This document shows, piece by piece, positions 36,504 through 55,543 of a stretch of 64,000 nt of DNA (position 1 is the stretch's first letter; each line of letters begins with the position of its first letter). The notes below the pieces were generated by a model. It had not been told where the DNA came from. It saw nothing but the letters and a program-made list of their open reading frames with translations, and did no database searches. Origin of the DNA: Gemmatimonadota bacterium. GTDB lineage: Bacteria > Gemmatimonadota > Gemmatimonadetes > Palauibacterales > Palauibacteraceae. Location of the stretch: contig OY762926.1 in assembly GCA_963666735.1 (NCBI GenBank), forward strand, positions 2,848,001 to 2,912,000, written 5' to 3'. The translations under genes were made by a program, and so were the position numbers.

Positions 36504-36965
36504 CCTCTCCTCAGCGTCGATGAACCGCCGGCTCTGTTCGTTCCGCGGCAGTTCGCAGGTCGTCTCCTTCCCGAACCAGCGGTAGCGGTTCCGGGCTACG
36601 AAGCGGTAGACGAAGTTGCGAAGCGGGGCGGGGATGACGAGGAGTGTCGCGACGAACGGCCAGGCGCGGCCGAGACCCGCCAGGATGAGCAGCGCGGCGG
36701 TGCTGCCGCGGTAGACCTTTCCTCTCGCGAACAGAATCAGTGACCGCGGAGGCTCGCCGGGTCCAAGGGTTCCAGGGGTCTCGACCCTCGCCGCCGCGAG
36801 GATCCGGCGTCCGGCGTCGGACTGGAGCGCGGCGAAGCGGAAGCGGCCCCGCCGGTCCCGGCGGATGACGAAGCGGACGGCGCCCGCGCACAGGTTGCAG
36901 ACGCCGTCGAAGAGGACGATGGGGCCCTCCGGGCGCGCGTCGGCGGGCCCCGCCGCGTCGTTCAC
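36483..36965 (-). CDS. DCC1-like thiol-disulfide oxidoreductase (DUF393)
   Basis: VLFDGVCNLC, FAALQS, YRFVARNRYRWFG; GTG overlaps upstream stop. Confidence 0.92.
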   Translation of the reverse strand: MNDAAGPADARPEGPIVLFDGVCNLCAGAVRFVIRRDRRGRFRFAALQSDAGRRILAAARVETPGTLGPGEPPRSLILFARGKVYRGSTAALLILAGLGRAWPFVATLLVIPAPLRNFVYRFVARNRYRWFGKETTCELPRNEQSRRFIDAEERAAKPSP

Positions 36966-39310
36966 GGCACGAGGCGGGGTCTCGCCATGTTCTTGAGCAG
37001 GAAGAGTCCGTCCCCGGTTCCCGTCACGGCGATTGTTCCGCTCTCGAAGTAGGGGTAGTTGCTCCACGATGCGCCGCCCTGGTAGGGCGAGGTGTCGAAG
37101 AAGCCGATCTCGACCGGGTTCTCGGGGTCCGAGATGTCGAGGACGCGGAAGCCCGCGGAGTAGTTCGACTGGTACATGAGATCGCCGACGATGTAGAGGT
37201 TGTGGTCGGTCGCGGTCGTCTCCGCGATGTATTCCGTGACGAGGACCGGATCGTCGAGGTCCGTCACATCCCACACCAGCGTGCGCGTCCCCTCCACGAG
37301 GCCCTGGGGCTCGTCGCCCTCGTCGTTCATGTAGAAGTAGCGGTGGTCGTCGGTCAGCCAGCCCTGGTGCGCGTAGGCGACGTTCGGATAGTCGATCGTG
37401 GCGAGGCCGGCGGGCGCATTCTTGTCGCTCACGTCGGCGATGTTGAACGCCGTCTCGTTCGAGCCGAGGCAGATTTCCTTGCCCGCGTGCTCGGTGTCGG
37501 GGCCGCGGTAGGTCACGCACTGCGCGTCGTGTACGTACCCCGTGCCGCGGCGTCCCGTCCCCTCCTGCGCGAAGCAGCCGGCGAAGACGGGCTGGGCCGG
37601 ATCCTCGAGATCGATCATGTGCAGGCCGCCGCCGCAGGTCTCGCCTCCGCCGCTGTTCCCGACGGCATAGGCGAAACCGGTCTCCTCGTTGATGACGATG
37701 TTGTGGGCGGAGTGAATCCCGTCGTAGAGGAAGGTCTCCTCGAACGTCACGGGCTCCGCGCCCACGTCGCGCAGTTGCCGCAGGTCGAACACCTGCACGC
37801 CGTGCTCCAGGGCCGCGTCCGCGACGATGTAGGCGTGGTCGCGATACACCTTGATGTCGCGCCAGATCATGTGTCTCGAACCTTCGGTGGCCGGCAGGTC
37901 GCCGAGGAAGCGCGGGTGATACGGGTCGCTGACGTCGACGAACGATGTGCCGTCCGTACGCCCGACAATCGCGATCTCCCGCCCCGTCTCCGGATCGGTC
38001 CAGCCCCAGATGTCGTTGACCCGCGTGGCGCGGGTGCCGCCGAGGTCCTTGATCGGCATGAATGCGGTGATGTTCACGTCCCGGCACTCGAAGACATCCG
38101 CCTGCCCCCCGGCGCACTCGATCTCCTCGCCGGCAAGGGCGGGGAAGCCGCGGTAGTCGTTGACGAGGGTGCCGCCTTCTTCCCAGGTGCCGGTGGCGGA
38201 CCGCTCGTAGACGACGGCGGCGCCGGCGCGGGAGTCGACTCCCGTCGCGCCGATGACGAGGTGGTCGCCGGATCTCGCGGCCGCCCCGGCGAAGCCGGAG
38301 CGCTCGCCGAGCGGAGAGCGCATCAGCACGGAGGCTTCGCTCCAGCGGCCGTCGGCGTCGCGGCGGTAGGCATACAGCGCACCCGCGCCGATCGAGCTCC
38401 CGGGGGCGCCGACCAGAATGTCGTTGCCGTCGAAGCCGATGGAGGATCCGAACTGCGCGTTGGGTTCCGGCAGCAGCGGGCCGAGCCGCGCCTCCATGGT
38501 CCAGCCATCGGCTCCCCGCGTGAAGGCGAAGACCGCCCCGCCGCTCTCCCTCAGGGTCGGGGCGCCCACCAGCGCGAAGCCGTCCCGCACGGCGAGCGAG
38601 GCGCCGAACCCGCTCCGCTCCTGCAGCGACGGCGTCTCCAGGGTCCCGGCTGCCGTCCACGACCCCGAGCCCTCGCGCTCGAAGGCATGCACCGCGGGCG
38701 GCGCGTCACCGGCCTCCCGGGTGCCGACGAGCAGCGTTTCTCCGTCGAGGGCCAGCGCCGCGCCGAACCCCTCGGTCGCCACGCCCTCCGCCGGCCGCAA
38801 CGCCGCGCCTGCGGAGGCGATCCCGTCGGGGCCCGGGACATAGGAGAACACGGCCCCTCGTCCGTCGTCCGCTCCGGGGGAGGACACGATCGCGGCGCCC
38901 CCGGTCAGGGCGATGGCGCTCCCGAACGCCGCGGCGCCCTCCGGCGCCCCGAGCCGGGCCACCTGCTCCCAGCCGCCCGCCCCATCGGACCGGAACACGT
39001 AGATCGCGCCGGCCCCGTCCGCTTCGAGCGGCGCGCCCGCCCACAGCCAGTCCCCCTGAGTCGCGATCGCCCGGCCGAACCCGTCCGGGACGCGCACCTC
39101 GCCGGAGACCGTGACCCGCCCCGTCTCGGCCCAGCCCGAGGCCGTGCGGCCGTAGACCCACACGATTCCGGACATCGTCCCGTTGCCCGCTTCGCCGACC
39201 AGCACCTGGTCGCCGCTCACGGCCAGCGCACCGCCGAACTGCTGCGCGGCGGCGGCCGCGGGAAACGCGAGCACCAAGCCCGCCGCGAAGAGAAGGATTC
39301 GCCGATTCAT
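36962..39310 (-). CDS. Choice-of-anchor B family secreted protein with FG-GAP-like repeats
   Basis: Signal peptide, repeated FG..LA..G...LVGAP, NDIWGWTDP, WRDIKVY, SAHNIVIN, YAHQGWLT, WSNYPYF. Confidence 0.88.
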   Translation of the reverse strand: MNRRILLFAAGLVLAFPAAAAAQQFGGALAVSGDQVLVGEAGNGTMSGIVWVYGRTASGWAETGRVTVSGEVRVPDGFGRAIATQGDWLWAGAPLEADGAGAIYVFRSDGAGGWEQVARLGAPEGAAAFGSAIALTGGAAIVSSPGADDGRGAVFSYVPGPDGIASAGAALRPAEGVATEGFGAALALDGETLLVGTREAGDAPPAVHAFEREGSGSWTAAGTLETPSLQERSGFGASLAVRDGFALVGAPTLRESGGAVFAFTRGADGWTMEARLGPLLPEPNAQFGSSIGFDGNDILVGAPGSSIGAGALYAYRRDADGRWSEASVLMRSPLGERSGFAGAAARSGDHLVIGATGVDSRAGAAVVYERSATGTWEEGGTLVNDYRGFPALAGEEIECAGGQADVFECRDVNITAFMPIKDLGGTRATRVNDIWGWTDPETGREIAIVGRTDGTSFVDVSDPYHPRFLGDLPATEGSRHMIWRDIKVYRDHAYIVADAALEHGVQVFDLRQLRDVGAEPVTFEETFLYDGIHSAHNIVINEETGFAYAVGNSGGGETCGGGLHMIDLEDPAQPVFAGCFAQEGTGRRGTGYVHDAQCVTYRGPDTEHAGKEICLGSNETAFNIADVSDKNAPAGLATIDYPNVAYAHQGWLTDDHRYFYMNDEGDEPQGLVEGTRTLVWDVTDLDDPVLVTEYIAETTATDHNLYIVGDLMYQSNYSAGFRVLDISDPENPVEIGFFDTSPYQGGASWSNYPYFESGTIAVTGTGDGLFLLKNMARPRLVP

Positions 39311-39409
39311 GATGTACCTCCGCCGAAGTTCCGTTCGATCAGGACTCCACGCGCCGCAGAATCTCCCCGGCGAGTTGCTTGAAGTCGTTGTAAGCCTCGT
39401 TCGCGGCCA

Positions 39410-39576
39410 CCGCATGGCTTCCGACGGTGGTCCGGGAGATCGTTGGCGGACGCGCACACGGCCTGCCGGATCTTGTCGCGGGCGTCGCCCTTCAGCGATT
39501 CCTTGCGCTCCACGAGGTCCGACTCGATGTTCGCCAGCATGGCCTCGAGTTCGTTGTTCGAATAGGGTCGGCTCAT
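39410..39576 (-). pseudogene. N-terminal fragment of a Schlafen/AlbA-2 ATP-binding protein
   Basis: ELEAMLANIESDLVERKESL...IRQAVCASANDLP. Confidence 0.7.
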
Positions 39577-39775
39577 GGCGTACACGGGTGGAGGATCGGG
39601 AGCGTCCATCGGTATCCACCGTCCATGTTACACGCCGTTTCCGGCTTAATGCGAGTTCTCTTCCCAGTCCTCGACCGTGCCGACCCGGCTTGCCGTACTT
39701 GCTGCGGGCCGGCGATGGGCCGGCGCTGGTGTGCTCACGCCCCTTGCCGAAGAGTTCGGCGGATGGAGTTGGGGG

Positions 39776-49359: not shown

Positions 49360-50715
49360 CTGGAGCACTTCGGCGTCGTAAGCCTCGTACCGACGGCCGT
49401 CGTACTGGCCGTTGCGGTCTGGACGCGCCGGCCGGTGGAATCCCTCATCGCCGGGGCGCTCGTCGGGTTCGCGATCCTCGTGCCCCGGGATCCGCTCACC
49501 GCCTTCACCGACGGCATGGTCGCGGTCATGCAGAACGAGACCGTGGGCTGGATCATCCTCGTCTGCGCGCTCTTCGGCAGCCTCATCACCCTGCTTGTCC
49601 GGGTCGGCGCGGCGGCCCGCTTCGGCGACGCGGCCTCGGCGCGCATCCGCACGCGCGGCGGCTCGCTCGCCATGACATGGCTGCTCGGGCTCGCCGTCTT
49701 CATCGACGACTACCTTAACGTCCTCGCGGTCAGTTCCTCCGTGAAGCGGGTCACCGACCGGTATCGCGTGTCGCGCGAGATGCTGGCCTATGTCGTGGAC
49801 TCGACCGCCGCGCCGGTCTGCATCCTCGTGCCGGTCTCGACGTGGGCCGCCTATTTCTCGGGCCTGCTCGAGGAGACGGGGTGGGCGGCGCCGGGCCGTG
49901 GCCTCGCCCTCTACATGGATGCGATCCCGTTCATGCTCTACGCGTGGATCGCGGTGGTTCTGGCCGCCCTCGTCGGGATCGGCGTCGTTCCCGCCATCGG
50001 CCCCATGCGCAGGGCGGAGCGCCGCGCCCGGGAGACGGGCGAGGTCGTCCCACCAGGCCTCGAAGAGACGAAGCTCGAAGGCGAGACCGATCCGCGCGCC
50101 GCCGAGCGGGCGCGCCCGTGGCACTTCATCGTTCCGGTCGTCACGCTGGTGGCCGCCACCTGGTGGCTCGACCTCGACATCCTCAAGGGCGTCATCGTCG
50201 CGCTCGGCGTCACCCTCGTCATCGTCGTAGGCGCCGGACTCCTCCGCGTGCGCGCGGCGCTCGATACGGCGATGGCTGGCGTCCTCACGATGATCGTCCC
50301 GCTGGCGACCGTGTTCGGCGGCTTCCTCCTCAAGGAAGTGAACGACGGACTCGGGCTCACCGCCTACCTCATCCAGACGGTCGAACCGCTGATGACGCCG
50401 CGGCTGCTCCCGGCCGTCACCTTCCTCACGATGTCGCTCGTCGCGTTCGCCACGGCGTCGTTCTGGGGCATCTTCGCCGTGGTGGTCCCGATCGTGCTGC
50501 CGCTCGCGAACTCGTTGGGGGCGGAGATGCCGCTCGTGATCGGGGCGCTCATCTCCGCCAGCGCGTTCGGCAGCCACGCCTGCTTCTACGGCGACTCGAC
50601 CGTGCTGGCGTCCCGGGGCGCCGGCTGCGGGGTGGTCGAGCATGCGCTGACCCAACTCCCTTACGCGCTCCTCGCCGCGGGGTTGGCCGCCGCAGGGTTC
50701 CTCCTCCTGGCCTGA
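49360..50715 (+). CDS. NhaC-family Na+/H+ antiporter-like transporter (probable CTG start)
   Basis: FIDDYLN, VDSTAAP, SFWG, FGSHACFYGDST; frame extends 25 codons upstream of listed ORF to CTG with GAAGGGAG RBS. Confidence 0.85.
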   Translation: MEHFGVVSLVPTAVVLAVAVWTRRPVESLIAGALVGFAILVPRDPLTAFTDGMVAVMQNETVGWIILVCALFGSLITLLVRVGAAARFGDAASARIRTRGGSLAMTWLLGLAVFIDDYLNVLAVSSSVKRVTDRYRVSREMLAYVVDSTAAPVCILVPVSTWAAYFSGLLEETGWAAPGRGLALYMDAIPFMLYAWIAVVLAALVGIGVVPAIGPMRRAERRARETGEVVPPGLEETKLEGETDPRAAERARPWHFIVPVVTLVAATWWLDLDILKGVIVALGVTLVIVVGAGLLRVRAALDTAMAGVLTMIVPLATVFGGFLLKEVNDGLGLTAYLIQTVEPLMTPRLLPAVTFLTMSLVAFATASFWGIFAVVVPIVLPLANSLGAEMPLVIGALISASAFGSHACFYGDSTVLASRGAGCGVVEHALTQLPYALLAAGLAAAGFLLLA

Positions 50716-50719
50716 TCCC

Positions 50720-51001
50720 GTCGCGCGCCGCGGCCCCGCGCTCGTCCGCGCCCCGATCTCGTAGCGGAGGCCGCCCGCCGAAAACACCGGTTTCGGCCGG
50801 GAGCCCTGCCGCCGCGCCCTCGCCCGCCGCGCCTTCACCTCCCGCTTCCGCCGGGCACTGTTCCCGCGGCTCCGGTCGTGCGATATTCCGTTCACCGGAA
50901 AGGCCTCCTGGTTGGTGTCCGGCGACTCGCGCCGGATTCTCGTAGCTACAATCAGGATAAGCCTTTCCGGTTTTTTGCAAGGGTCCGCGCTTGCTTTAGG
51001 A
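50720..51001 (-). mobile_element. IS1380-like remnant (left end plus transposase N-terminus)
   Basis: Minus-strand RRKREVKARR...PVFSAGGLRYEIGART resembles IS1380 transposase N-termini; end CGCTTGCTTTAGGA next to CTAG. Confidence 0.5.
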
Positions 51002-51045
51002 CTAGTAGTAGGGGCGTAGGTTTCGCGTGGCCCAAGGAGCTTTGG

Positions 51046-51840
51046 ATGATCGACATCCTGGCGGACTCGCCAGACGACGGGGCGCTCATCGCAAGAGCCA
51101 TCGGTAGCGACACACGGGTCCTGAACAATTCCGTTCGGTTCGCGAACGGCGGCGCCCATGCCGAGTGTCGGATCCTGGGTTGCCGCCATCCGATTCAGGC
51201 GGAGCGAATCGAACTCGTGCGAAAGATCGAGCGTGACGCGCCGTGGGTTCCCGTCATCCTCGTGACGGATCACGCGCCCGGCGTTGCTCACCGGCTGTGC
51301 GATATCAGGGTGGCGGCCGTCGTCTGGTACCCGGACGTCCGAACCGAACTCGAGCCCCGGATCGTCGCCGTCAAGCAATCGGTCCCGCTCCTGCGCCTGG
51401 CCAAACAGGTGGAGGAAGCGAAGCTGCCTCCTGCCCTTCGATCCGGACTGGCGTACAGCTTGCGCGCCGCCACCCGCCGACCCGTGCGCGGCTTGAAGGC
51501 GTTGGCGGACGCCGTTCACATCTCTCCCATCACTCTGTCCCACGAGTTCCGGAAGAGTGCCGGCGGGGCGGCAAACCTGAGCCAGTTCCTCAGCGCCCTC
51601 ACGGTCCTGAAGGCCCAGGAGCTTCGTCTCTCGGGTTTGAGCTGGGACGTGGTGGCCGGACGCCTGGGGTTCGCGCGTCAGACCCTCCACAACAAATCGA
51701 CCCGCTGGCCGGGCAGCACGCTCAAACAACTCGCGCGTACGCGCCAAGCGCCGCCTGGAAGTCGACCGATGGCGGCGAGAGCTGGACCCAAACAACTCGC
51801 GCGTACGCGCCAAGCGCCGCCCCGGGTCGGCGAGCGGTGA
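51046..51840 (+). CDS. HTH transcriptional regulator (degenerate receiver-like N-terminus, AraC-like double HTH)
   Basis: APWVPVILVTD, LKALADAVHISPITLSHEF, SWDVVAGRLGFARQTL; AAGGAG RBS; C-terminus runs into repeat array. Confidence 0.75.
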   Translation: MIDILADSPDDGALIARAIGSDTRVLNNSVRFANGGAHAECRILGCRHPIQAERIELVRKIERDAPWVPVILVTDHAPGVAHRLCDIRVAAVVWYPDVRTELEPRIVAVKQSVPLLRLAKQVEEAKLPPALRSGLAYSLRAATRRPVRGLKALADAVHISPITLSHEFRKSAGGAANLSQFLSALTVLKAQELRLSGLSWDVVAGRLGFARQTLHNKSTRWPGSTLKQLARTRQAPPGSRPMAARAGPKQLARTRQAPPRVGER

Positions 51841-51962
51841 GCCGGCAGGCGGAGGCGGCAAACAACTCGCGCGTACGCGCCAAACGCCGCCTGCGGCCCG
51901 GAGCGGGGGCGGTGGGCGACCAGTTCGGCACAAACAACTCGCGCGTACGCGCCAAGCGCCGC
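51723..51962. repeat. CRISPR-like array: 4 x 32-nt repeat, 3 unique spacers, no cas genes in window
   Basis: CAAACAACTCGCGCGTACGCGCCAAGCGCCGC at 51723, 51789, 51859 (1 mismatch), 51931; spacers 34, 38, 40 nt. Confidence 0.9.
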
Positions 51963-52022
51963 TGCTCGCAAAGTTCATCTCCGATTTCTCGAAACCGCTG
52001 CTCCGTACCAGTGACGCGGACC

Positions 52023-52055
52023 GTCCACCGATTTCTTGACAAAGTCCATCGATTC
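52023..52055 (+). promoter_or_regulatory. Putative operator: direct repeats 21 bp apart flanking TTGACA
   Basis: GTCCACCGATT (52023) and GTCCATCGATT (52044) with TTGACA at 52036-52041. Confidence 0.4.
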
Positions 52056-52301
52056 CAATCTGGCACGGGTCCGCGCGACACCCGAAGTTCCAAACGTGCC
52101 GCGACACGGCGGCTTTGCAGGGTGGGGAAAGCGTTGGACGGCAACAGGTTCTGTGGAGTGTCGATGCTGAGAAAATACCGGCACTCTCGACGACCCCGGT
52201 GGTATGGCGGCGCGCTGGCTGCCGGTGCTCTTCCTGGCAACCGACCGACGAGGAGCCACCGCACCGCAGACGCAACGGGACTTTATCGCGAGGAGAGACG
52301 G

Positions 52302-52826
52302 ATGATTGCCGCCCACGCCAGCATCTGGGCACCCGGTAAGTCGCAGTGCCTGAAGGCTACGTTGTCGGCAGCTGTTCTGGTCTCGCTGATCGGATGCCAC
52401 GGGACGTTCGCGCAGGATGAAGCTGGCGCGTGGGAGGAGCGGGCAAGCGACATCATCGCCGCGGCGGATCGGCGAGTCGAAGACGCAACGACTGTTTATT
52501 GGGTCATATCGCAGTCGGCATCAACAATTTGCTCTGATTACCTCTATTACGTTCGCCACTTCGCATCGCGTACTACAGATTATAAACATGTGATCATTAC
52601 GGATTTTGATGAGAATGCTCTCCGCAGCCAACTCAGAAAAGCTCGTATCGATGCCACGGTTATCGCCGTGCCGCATGTGCTTCCCTCCAACGCGATGCTA
52701 GTCGTCGCAGCGGGTACCGGCATGCAGCCCTTGGTGGTCCGATTTGTTGCTGGCACCGACGCCTCGCGGCACCCCAACCGTGTGTCGGATATGGTTGCCA
52801 ATCTTCTCGGGGAGGTCGCTGAATGA
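52302..52826 (+). CDS. Hypothetical exported protein
   Basis: AGGAGAG RBS, hydrophobic segment ending LIGC, coupled to next gene; lower GC. Confidence 0.55.
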   Translation: MIAAHASIWAPGKSQCLKATLSAAVLVSLIGCHGTFAQDEAGAWEERASDIIAAADRRVEDATTVYWVISQSASTICSDYLYYVRHFASRTTDYKHVIITDFDENALRSQLRKARIDATVIAVPHVLPSNAMLVVAAGTGMQPLVVRFVAGTDASRHPNRVSDMVANLLGEVAE

Positions 52827-53490
52827 TGCGGCTCGCGAGCCGCCCCGGCGAGCTCCTTTCGAGTGCGGCCGTCGTCGTGTTGGCATTCGCGGTGGCGTCG
52901 ACCCGCGGTGCGGGTGGACACACAGAACTTGTCGGCGAAACGACAGCTCGTTGTCGCGCAGATGTACCAGCAATCGGAACTACGTTCTTCGAGGCGCGTC
53001 GTGTCGACCTCCAGGATCTGGACACGGCGAGGCTGGTGACGCCCAGCGTCATCGATATCTCGCCATCGGGCAACCACATTCTCATCGGAGACCGCGACGA
53101 CTACGACGTGAAACTGTTTGATCGCGGCGGCCGCTTGATTAGCGTCATCGCAACGCGCGGGGAACAACCCGGACAGGTGTTTATTCTGGATGGCGCGGCG
53201 TTTCGCAATGATTCAATTGTCATGATCGCGGACGCCGGGCGGATGCAGTTGATGGAATTCGATCTGCAGGGCAAGCTGGTCGCCGAAACGCATCTTCCGG
53301 TACGACCGATCACCTCCGTTCAAGTGTTGGACCAAAGCGTGCTCGTCGGAGGAAGATCTCCTACCACGCTCGCGGACCCAAGAGTCAAGGGGGTTCATGT
53401 GCTGGATTCCGAGGGGAGTATTTCCCAGTCCCTCGGCTCTCAACCCTTGGCATCGGTCGGCGGCGTGTCAAGATACTTGGCCGCGACGGC
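52823..53490 (+). pseudogene. 6-bladed beta-propeller interrupted by IS remnant
   Basis: ILIGD, KLFDRGGRL, TRGEQPGQV, MIADAG; cut off at IS end. Confidence 0.72.
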
Positions 53491-53648
53491 TGTCGTACCA
53501 AAGTAGAAATGTCCCCCCTTAGCCAAGTAGAAATGTCCTCTTACGGTCCATGTTCGGTCAACGGCGGAACGGGATCCGGGAGAGGAGCGGATGGACTTGA
53601 GTCTGAGGGAGCGGGATCGCATCTCGGTGCTGAGACAGGTGAGCGAGA
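53491..53648 (+). mobile_element. IS1202/ISNCY-like left end plus first codons of transposase
   Basis: TGT terminus, tandem AAGTAGAAATGTCC sites (53501, 53525), ORF start MDLSLRERDRISVLRQV at 53591. Confidence 0.65.
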
Positions 53649-53715
53649 ATGGACGGTACGCGGTCCGCATTTTCGCGCCGTGTGCAACCAAGTCAGAAGA
53701 TTAAGGAGCATGACT

Positions 53716-53937
53716 ATGAAGAAAAGACACTCGAAGTTGCGTCTGGGGCTCGCACTCGTGCTGATCTCGGCGTTGGCCGGAACTGCCGGAGCATCCCCCA
53801 CACCTGCCAGTCAGGACGCGATGGAGGTCTTGTTGTGCAAGTACGACGCGGAGGAAGATGCGCAGCGGTGCCGCGTTGTTGAAGTGCGGTGCGCGCCAAA
53901 CTGCTTTACGGGCTTCTGCTGTATGCATATCGACTAG
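53716..53937 (+). CDS. Secreted 6-Cys micro-protein A
   Basis: AAGGAG RBS, signal peptide, C-x10-C-x6-C-x3-C-x4-CC. Confidence 0.78.
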   Translation: MKKRHSKLRLGLALVLISALAGTAGASPTPASQDAMEVLLCKYDAEEDAQRCRVVEVRCAPNCFTGFCCMHID

Positions 53938-53985
53938 CTTCAGAGCGATCGATTTCGACGCCACCGGGAAGGAAGGTTTACAGTG

Positions 53986-54231
53986 ATGTCAGACCAACTG
54001 AGACCACGCCGCTCGATCTGGACGTCCGTGCTAACTGCGGTCGTGGTGGTCGGCGCACTCTGTGCTCCGCAACTCGGCAAGCCGGGGCATGCGCAAGAAG
54101 ATGATGGGGGGCCACCCGACGATTCGTACCAAGCGCTCAAGGCCATCCACTGCGACCTTGATGGCTGTGAGGTTCGCGGCTACTACTGCTTGCGAAGGTG
54201 CTGGGCGGCTCCATGCTGTGTCGACGCGTAG
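53986..54231 (+). CDS. Secreted 6-Cys micro-protein B
   Basis: GGAAGG RBS, signal peptide ending GHA, C-x4-C-x6-C-x3-C-x4-CC. Confidence 0.78.
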   Translation: MSDQLRPRRSIWTSVLTAVVVVGALCAPQLGKPGHAQEDDGGPPDDSYQALKAIHCDLDGCEVRGYYCLRRCWAAPCCVDA

Positions 54232-54263
54232 GCTCTTCGTTCCTTCTTCGCGAGACTAACCTG

Positions 54264-55379
54264 TTGCGGGCACTAGCCCTCGTGGCGGCAGGGGCCGCGT
54301 CCGGGTGTGGGATGCCTGCGAACTCGGACGAGGATCGGGAGCTGGCGTGGGCTCTTACGCCGGAATTCCGGTTGGGATCACAGTCCGGTCGCGACGCGCT
54401 GCATCGCGTGTCGGCCCGATCGACGACGGTGGGACCTGACGGGTCGTTCTACGTTCTCGACAAGGGCAACTACCGGGTCGTTAAGTTCGACGCGGAGGGG
54501 GGATATGTCCGCGAGTTCGGATCGAGAGGCGAGGGGCGGAGCGAGTTTGCCTACCCCATGGCTTTGCTTGGACCTCGGGGAGATACGCTGAGCGTTCTGG
54601 ACGGCCCTTCGCTGTCTCACAAGCTCTTCACAACTGCGGGAGACTTCCTGGAGGCGAGGCGTATTCCCCAATCCGCAGCCAGTGAAGACCAGCGGGATAC
54701 GTCGGACGGCATCGTTCTCGTGGAGATCTTTGGCTATCGCAGTCGCAGCGCGGAGGTGACGGACCGCCTCGTATTGATTCGTGATCGCGGCGACACCATC
54801 ACGCTGGCCGACCAAACCAGGGCGTCATCGGGTACATACACCATTCCGGTGTGCAACTACACCATTCCGGCAGAGCCCTTATTCAGGCACGTCCTGTGGT
54901 GGGATGCGGCCGGTGATCTGATTGCCGCGACCCAGAGCGCCGACTACTCAGTGCATGTGTTCAACCGTGGCAGGTTGGTGCAGGAATTGAAGCGGGCGAT
55001 TCCGCCCGCCCCGATCACGGAGGTGGTGGCGCGCGCCGAAGTTGGGGACGGATCTACGTGGAGCGTGGCGGGCCGCGCCTGCACGGCTGATCCCGAGGAT
55101 GAACTGGATGCTCGGGGGTTTGAGGACTTCCGGCAGGTGATCACGGGGATCCGCGTGGACCCGACCGGTTGGATCTGGGTGCGGCGTCACGCCGCGCCGC
55201 CGGGCGAGGAGGACCGACACAGAATCGATGTCTTCGATTCGGCCGGGGTGTTTCACGGCACCCTCCCGGCAGACACGCCGTGGCCGGGCATGTTCACGCC
55301 GGACGGTCGAGTCGTGCGCCGCGAATTGGACGAGTTCGACGTGGAGTATCTCGTCATCTACCGCATCGACAGAAACTAG
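54264..55379 (+). CDS. 6-bladed beta-propeller lipoprotein
   Basis: AASGC lipobox, FYVLDKGNYRVVKF, FGSRGEGRSEF, VDPTGWIWV, LDEFDVEYLV; start uncertain. Confidence 0.85.
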   Translation: MRALALVAAGAASGCGMPANSDEDRELAWALTPEFRLGSQSGRDALHRVSARSTTVGPDGSFYVLDKGNYRVVKFDAEGGYVREFGSRGEGRSEFAYPMALLGPRGDTLSVLDGPSLSHKLFTTAGDFLEARRIPQSAASEDQRDTSDGIVLVEIFGYRSRSAEVTDRLVLIRDRGDTITLADQTRASSGTYTIPVCNYTIPAEPLFRHVLWWDAAGDLIAATQSADYSVHVFNRGRLVQELKRAIPPAPITEVVARAEVGDGSTWSVAGRACTADPEDELDARGFEDFRQVITGIRVDPTGWIWVRRHAAPPGEEDRHRIDVFDSAGVFHGTLPADTPWPGMFTPDGRVVRRELDEFDVEYLVIYRIDRN

Positions 55380-55543
55380 TAGGGCGAGCCTCGATTCCGT
55401 CCGGATCGTTTCGAGCGAAAATCCGGTGCCGATGGTCTGTGACCCATGATCGGCTGAGGGCGTCTGCTATCCGCGTACAGGCAGGTCAACCGGGGAGGGT
55501 CGGAACGAAACGGCGGACATCTGTTGCCGACGGATCTCATGCG

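Follow-up and report, generated by a model that had tools for sequence, protein, structure and literature searches.

What produces a repeat-spacer array that lies inside a protein-coding gene, far from any cas gene, and that holds pieces of its own host's chromosome? The question is posed by a stretch of 64,000 nucleotides (the window) from a Gemmatimonadota genome of the family Palauibacteraceae (G000; 3,977,883 bases in a single contig, 68% GC, 94% complete). An earlier note, made from the letters of the window, had described a CRISPR-like array there, and remeasurement bore this out: four repeats of 32 nt, beginning at 51723, 51789, 51859 and 51931, are separated by spacers of 34, 38 and 40 nt. 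Three of the repeats are identical and the third in order carries a G>A change at 51884, a position at which the unchanged base was inferred in another sequencing run (X4, below).

Genomic context of the array

The repeats sit in, and are made of, protein-coding sequence, a point that the earlier reading missed. The ORF beginning at 51046 on the plus strand gave a weak match to an AraC-type helix-turn-helix (HTH) domain (PF12833, HTH_18; E 2e-5, residues 153-220), below the curated cut-off, and is described here as an AraC-like regulator gene (51046..51840). Repeat 1 (51723..51754) keeps the natural left flank of the gene and encodes KQLARTRQAP, repeats 2 (51789..51820) and 4 (51931..51962) are standard copies, the latter with the gene's natural right flank, and repeat 3 (51859..51890) is the variant copy. 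Read on the plus strand, the 66-nt unit of spacer 1 (51755..51788) and the 72-nt unit of spacer 3 (51891..51930) are in frame and open. The 70-nt unit of spacer 2 (51821..51858) brings an in-frame TGA, at which the gene now ends within the spacer, and the regulator is truncated just past its HTH domain. After the last repeat copy the frame runs for 25 more residues to a stop at 52037-52039, and this 3' end of the regulator (LLAKFISDFSKPLL...; 51963..52039, plus strand) is orphaned, cut off by the spacer 2 stop. The site begins just past the end of the HTH domain, so that the protein may still bind DNA and be short of its last helix only.

The 32-nt repeat was found at a single locus in the 3.98-Mb genome, with 9 mismatches at the next best place. 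The suggestion of a dispersed or mobile palindromic element was therefore not borne out; the repeat is a duplicated piece of the AraC-like gene. The palindrome on which that suggestion drew is present as described, a perfect 12 bp at repeat positions 11-22 (51733..51744 in repeat 1), in all four copies and at the exact centre of the duplication, but there is nothing unusual in it, and it was rejected as the mark of a special element since G000 has 2,374 perfect palindromes of at least 12 bp. Rfam covariance models, including those for CRISPR repeats, gave no match over 50500-53000 at E up to 5, no match to the repeat core was found in a scan of metagenome contigs that may leave out near relatives, and no tRNA integration site was found in the 64-kb window. 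Downstream of the regulator, the stretch 52000-55400 has a lower GC content (57-65%) and encodes six-bladed propeller proteins, together with two short ORFs with Cys-rich C-termini at about 53745-53937 and 53983-54231.

Homologues of the regulator were found in 22 of the 35 congeners, with up to nine matches per congener. The four closest full-length orthologues (G008, G006, G033 and G002; 68-72% protein identity) have the site once, lacking the palindrome and followed by the same C-terminal helix, and in a gene fragment of G020 it is likewise single-copy. A scan for short duplications at 33 loci was positive for G000's own locus only (0/32 others), and a second scan of congener loci gave 0/21. 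The single-copy state in congeners indicates that the array is a derived expansion of one coding site; its repeat duplicates a pre-existing non-CRISPR sequence, as would be expected of a neo-CRISPR array. The closest congener (G017; 95% DNA identity) is missing window positions 51459-52174, the same part of the gene, which suggests that the regulator gene is dispensable. This deletion, of 716 bases at L071:4204-4205, takes the 3' half of the regulator including the target site.

Chromosomal sources of the spacers

The proposal that chromosomal repeat-protein genes were the source of spacers 1 and 3 was upheld. Spacer 1 is an exact copy (34/34) of G000:1818310-1818343 on the minus strand, within the gene of a 1149-aa Vps10/BNR Asp-box protein, and spacer 3 matches G000:3412397-3412436 on the plus strand at 37/40 positions, within the gene of an 820-aa FG-GAP/LVIVD protein; both carry the sense strand. 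Their translations, WKSTDGGESWT and LRPGAGAVGDQFG, had been given correctly, and the peptide with which the latter had been compared, LRPAEGVATEGFG, is present in the ORF at 36962-39619 (minus strand). Of the three differences in spacer 3, two fall on third codon positions and are synonymous, and the other is the base found in all three congener orthologues fetched, which indicates that the spacer is a capture from another or older allele and no simple decay. No closer donor allele was found among the 35 congeners at up to 3 mismatches. One edge of each of these two spacers shows 1-2 nt of microhomology.

For spacer 2, the best match in G000 has 9 mismatches, and no source was found in the 35 congeners (at up to 3 mismatches), in GTDB genomes or in viral contigs. 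Two metagenome matches to its 22-nt core were dismissed as chance, having 10 and 12 mismatches over the full spacer.

None of 78 spacers from the true arrays of the genome was within 8 mismatches of the remaining genome, against two of the three here (Fisher p 9e-4). As a random background, a second exact copy was found for 5/120 genome 34-mers and a copy within 3 mismatches for 5/120 genome 40-mers. When interference is off, self spacers are reported to make up 2-99% of acquisitions (partial text of PMC7054753).

CRISPR-Cas systems of the genome and genus

A whole-genome search with Cas1 profiles returned two loci, both outside the window, so that the idea of an unknown Cas-less system for capture or guides did not hold: the host encodes Cas1 and Cas2 twice. 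Locus A (G000:150070-158310) is of type I-G, with cas7g, csb2, cas3g, cas4, cas1 and cas2 in open frames and a Cas3-adjacent I-G family gene whose match fell below the cut-off; its Cas4 is unfused and its Cas1 is I-C-like. Its array (array A) has 50 repeats of 37 nt with spacers of 35-42 nt. At locus B, cas2 accompanies a gene for a Cas4g/Cas1g fusion, and the array there (array B) consists of 30 repeats of 36 nt, its spacers again measuring 35-42 nt. The 608-aa fusion protein was also considered as an RT-Cas1, an identity that was rejected on its score as Cas4g/Cas1g. In the region examined (L035:800-5353), only cas4g/cas1g and cas2 lie beside the 30-repeat array; the nearest other genes presumably represent a nucleotidyltransferase-HepT pair and restriction-modification genes.

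Among the congeners, Cas1 was found in 8/35, in several types, and in 0/4 of those with the intact site, the assemblies being incomplete. Spacers measure 33-41 nt in the A-type arrays of two congeners and 32-36 nt in an I-C-like array of G014 (8 spacers, 33-nt repeat), and the period of I-E arrays is 61. The inserts of 34, 38 and 40 nt studied here thus compare with 35-42 nt in the host's own arrays and 33-41 nt in the two congeners. They fit A-type I-G arrays and not I-C-like or I-E arrays, which supports an involvement of locus A.

Other CRISPR-related sequences were also seen in G000. A two-repeat remnant at G000:3125502-3125591, with a period of 61, resembles the type I-E repeat of G026 and adjoins an IS fragment; no I-E cas1 was found in G000 by the Cas1 profile search. 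About 200 nt upstream of cas7g, two degenerate A-type repeats flank one 36-nt spacer (L034:760-875; G000:149760-149875), and a similar unit occurs in G010 (L063) with a similar spacer and in G017 with a different one. We take this unit to be a candidate regulatory mini-array of the CreA/crlRNA kind; no clear target of its spacer was found in the promoter region. The G010 leader is nearly identical to that of locus A. Just upstream of locus A, at G000:147499-148925, lie ORFs that we take to resemble MobC and a relaxase, and the I-G locus may be carried on a mobile element.

Similarity of the duplicated site to array A

Read on the minus strand, the duplication has its right edge in exact register with the leader-repeat junction of array A, with 12/15 positions identical (-4 to +11; 51952..51966). 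This score was reached by 1.4e-5 of about 7.9 million strand-positions, and seven other choices of junction window gave 1e-4 to 3e-2. Across the left edge, the final 7 bases of the array A repeat match at 7/7 when a repeat length of 36 is assumed (51719..51725, minus strand, 4 nt outside the duplication). Tests of the ends alone gave fractions of 0 to 1.6e-6 with the leader end included (best 0-13 sites) and 8e-5 without it (best 662). The windows of the junction and end tests, from which the strongest of these figures come, were picked after the alignment had been viewed and are thus post hoc. A less post hoc test, of the whole repeat with one gap, gave 4.7e-4 to 7.8e-3, with 3,740 to 61,975 sites in the genome scoring as well. 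When the site was compared without gaps to six repeats and four leader-repeat composites, the similarity was not significant (best-of-130-window fractions of 4e-3 to 5e-2), and the 150-nt flanks were no more like the leaders of A and B than random DNA, with only the last 4 nt matching. The array B and I-C-like repeats gave no signal in any similarity test. Resemblance to a native leader-repeat region was accordingly found for locus A only, at a strength that depends on the test. The congener sites score lower at the junction (8-11/15), which suggests that codon drift in the G000 lineage improved the match.

The length of the duplication departs from that of the native repeats, at 32 nt (30-32 nt if microhomology is allowed for) against 37 and 36 nt. 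The centre of the palindrome lies 16 nt from each edge of the duplication, and the centre of dyad symmetry in the array A repeat lies 15 nt from its leader-side edge.

PAMs reported for type I-G are TTN (PMC6547450), TAC, TAN, TTN, AAN and TTC (PMC8482600) and TAT (PMC12915315), as given in the accessible parts of these sources. None of TTN, TAN or AAN stands beside either protospacer in either orientation. In a search for the PAM of locus A itself, six array A spacer cores run against viral contigs yielded a single homologue with 7 mismatches, whose record had no convincing match to other spacers of the array, and array A was sought in 100 family genomes, where other arrays and no usable protospacer were found. 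CAT occurs at -6 to -4 of both protospacers in the array A orientation (G000:1818304-1818306 and 3412440-3412442), which in two cases may be chance, and at -3 to -1 of the 7-mismatch viral homologue, that of spacer A20. All three spacers of the 32-nt array (51755, 51821, 51891) start with C on the plus strand and so end in G in the array A orientation, as do 24/49 spacers of array A itself.

Genome-wide scans for a duplication with an insert (16 + 24 clusters) found no such scar besides the true arrays and the I-E-like remnant, the other clusters reading as tRNA tandems and coding repeats. These scans missed the degenerate unit upstream of cas7g, and old scars could therefore escape them.

Variation of the array among runs

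The region was listed for 21 sequencing runs, several of those holding it being labelled sponge metagenome, and four from four studies (X1, X4, X6 and X8), all as contigs, were compared; parts that a run left uncovered were not counted as evidence except where an unbroken contig spans the place. In X1 and X6, from two studies, all three spacers were found with their junctions. X1 may be the source sample of the genome, which leaves X6 as the independent confirmation. The shared repeat piece in X1 has about three times the depth of its flanks.

In X4 and X8, from two other studies, the array lacks spacer 1. The protospacer-1 gene of X4 (depth 19-25) lies unbroken in a 4,912-base contig through 35 bases identical to spacer 1, which argues against a spacer 1 in the X4 array since 31-base words would have split the contig, as happened in X1. 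Spacer 3 of X4 lies between two standard repeats, as inferred from contig ends and one other letter, and the repeat depth of 55 corresponds to two or three copies, so spacer 2 or another may be present. In X8 one contig (depth 4.8) leads out of the gene across a single repeat and on into spacer 2, possibly through an assembly join. The protospacer-1 allele shared by X4 and X8 has G where spacer 1 and G000 have C. The use of allele identity as a clock of spacer age was judged weak and set aside, as X6 has spacer 1 and no identical protospacer piece was seen in it. The array is real and is variable at its left unit.

These observations conflict over polarity, since the junction match places the leader on the right, which would make spacer 3 the newest, and the runs vary on the left, at spacer 1. 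Trailer spacers are reported to be stable (PMC8047081, partial text). Together with the runs and the allele match, this makes a gain of spacer 1 at the left end the simpler and somewhat favoured account; the alternative is a loss of spacer 1 by recombination.

Origin of the array

On this evidence we consider it probable that the locus is a natural neo-CRISPR array formed by repeated off-target integration, most likely by the Cas4, Cas1 and Cas2 of locus A. The process started from an ancestral gene that had one copy of the site, the state seen in the congeners. On the minus strand the site resembles the leader-repeat junction and repeat end of locus A, with the test-dependent strength given above. 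By established Cas1-Cas2 chemistry, the integrase would have attacked at the junction-like position and on the opposite strand about 32 nt away, and gap filling would then have duplicated the target around a fragment of 34-40 nt. Three rounds with the same boundaries are seen in the array, and at least two of the fragments are chromosomal gene DNA. Truncation of the regulator past its HTH domain by the 70-nt unit was presumably tolerated because the gene is dispensable. The exact right edge and shifted left edge fit the more exact leader-side attack of a type I-G Cas4/1 assay, in which leader-side integration was exact in 80-90% of cases and spacer-side integration in 60-70% (partial text of PMC10504553). 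Against an attribution to locus A stand the 32-nt duplication in place of 37 nt, the lack of significance without gaps, the conflict over polarity, the absence of a reported PAM and the occurrence of a lone scar although several thousand sites score as well.

The mismatch in length would suit another integrase acting by the same mechanism, either a lost Cas1-Cas2 with a 32-33-nt ruler (I-C-like, as in G014) or the Cas4/Cas1 fusion of locus B. The I-C-like repeat of G014 is 33 nt long, in keeping with a duplication of 32 nt, Cas content varies within the genus as the distribution of Cas1 types shows, and the decayed I-E-like remnant implies that systems come and go in this lineage. However, spacers of 38 and 40 nt exceed the 32-36 nt of the eight I-C-like spacers, the site is without similarity to the B or I-C-like repeat, and there is no third Cas1 in this 94% complete genome; we consider this explanation unlikely. 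Capture without Cas proteins would have taken place at a staggered break close to the palindrome, where repair by end-joining or template switching put in short pieces of the chromosome and left the flank duplicated. It would draw on the Ku encoded by the genome and would agree with the microhomology at spacers 1 and 3 and with protospacers that lack a PAM. It would make the in-register likeness to a real leader-repeat junction a coincidence, and similar scars were absent elsewhere in the genome scans. To our knowledge, repair is not expected to yield three events that share the same 32-nt boundaries and whose inserts all fall within 34-40 nt, and such an origin is very unlikely. A dispersed REP/MITE-like palindromic repeat or an assembly artefact is largely refuted and hardly credible. 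The repeat does hold a palindrome, and G000 is a single-contig assembly; yet the repeat is confined to one locus, where it is conserved coding sequence in congeners, contigs from two studies (X1 and X6) hold the repeat-spacer junctions, the repeat depth in X1 is raised, and spacer 3 cannot be a chimera of the gene copy in the assembly, from which it differs. The earlier note had named two outcomes as fatal to its own reading, an orphan array of a known repeat and a dispersed element, and neither holds exactly: the repeat differs from those of the genome's arrays and is not dispersed.

One possibility, towards which we remain tentative and somewhat sceptical, is that the type I-G integrase with a 37-nt repeat founded in nature a heritable array whose new repeat, of 32 nt, differs in sequence. 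It would have docked on the chance palindrome and cut 16 nt to each side of its centre, using the leader-side distance twice. Growth of the array would have continued since, perhaps at the end away from the leader-like junction. The symmetric use of the leader-side distance as the source of the 32 nt is put forward as a hypothesis only.

Prospects for a guide function

The earlier note had also raised the idea of a functional guide array, which, whatever its origin, would yield RNAs that regulate the host's secreted repeat-protein genes. Both known sources do encode large repeat proteins of secreted type and are co-oriented, such that a transcript of the minus strand of the array would be antisense to the mRNA of each, and the array has been kept in strains from several studies. 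Two spacers would, however, agree in orientation by chance half the time, and Asp-box genes are very common in G000, so that one such match is unremarkable. No sigma-70-like promoter was found on either strand, and the repeat is without a hairpin (z +0.5 and +0.9), against z -1.8 and -2.2 for the true repeats, whose two folds are one base out of register. The final 4-5 nt of the A repeat are also missing from the duplication, and the array is conserved in no congener. A repeat near-identical to that of locus A or B, with its hairpin and 3' handle, would be expected of a functional array, and the locus falls short of this. With no promoter-like site, no repeat hairpin and no known PAM, a regulatory role was not supported and appears highly improbable.

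The lack of a hairpin, of the A repeat end and of a promoter-like site instead suggests that the array is silent, probably inert and probably not a new functional system. Silence would explain how self spacers survive here and are absent from the true arrays: an array that is not processed to guides would let them persist, though they would be purged from real arrays.

Relation to known arrays and implications

Nivala, Shipman and Church reportedly described in 2018 neo-CRISPR arrays arising from non-canonical Cas1-Cas2 integration in the type I-E system of E. coli. The present locus shares with the E. coli arrays the insertion of spacer-sized DNA, with duplication of the target, at a chromosomal site outside an array (10.1101/148544, PMC7054753 and PMC6698737, each in its accessible part). 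It differs in being natural and without overexpression, in having undergone three rounds at one site in a coding gene, in its attribution to a Cas4-containing type I-G module, in varying at the strain level, and in a 32-nt duplication that is shorter than the native 37-nt repeat and has its own sequence. In the accessible text of 10.1101/148544, off-target events are held to be able to spawn new arrays, on circumstantial evidence only and from two other species, and how commonly such arrays are produced is called unclear.

In vitro, off-target sites of the Pyrococcus furiosus Cas1-Cas2 are reported to resemble the repeat, the leader-repeat junction from -4 to +4 being key, and to be spaced at the native repeat length of 30-31 bp (PMC6698737, partial text), whereas the spacing here is 4-5 nt shorter than native. 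For the I-G Cas4/1 modules of Geobacter (PMC6547450) and Methanosarcina (PMC10504553), the accessible text gives variable spacers near 36-39 nt and a more exact leader-side attack, as here; unlike these, locus A has an unfused Cas4 and an I-C-like Cas1, and neither protospacer has a TTN PAM. About 30% of unique naive spacers in the Geobacter assay had no plasmid match (PMC6547450). An ordinary orphan CRISPR array has the same repeat-spacer geometry far from cas genes, but the repeat here is host coding sequence, unlike the arrays of the genome or of the congeners examined, and the spacers are mostly self. A literature search found no natural multi-spacer neo-array that belonged to type I-G or showed an altered repeat length; most subscription papers were outside its scope, including that of 2018 and the natural candidates listed in it.

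The origin of new CRISPR arrays and repeat types is an open question for which off-target integration is a proposed source. This locus lends itself to direct testing, because its ancestral site is seen in the empty state, insertion took place three times, self spacers can be traced to their sources, the same genome encodes a candidate enzyme, and strains vary. How Cas4-type integrases come by their repeat length could be studied on it as a natural substrate, and it cautions that scars of this kind are among the database arrays labelled 'orphan' or 'self-targeting'. For the host, it would mean that Cas1-Cas2 can act as a mutagen of its genes. If the reading of a 32-nt array founded by a type I-G integrase is true, host coding DNA could give rise to new repeat families and lengths in a single step, and silent arrays would record the unselected, mostly chromosomal input of adaptation.
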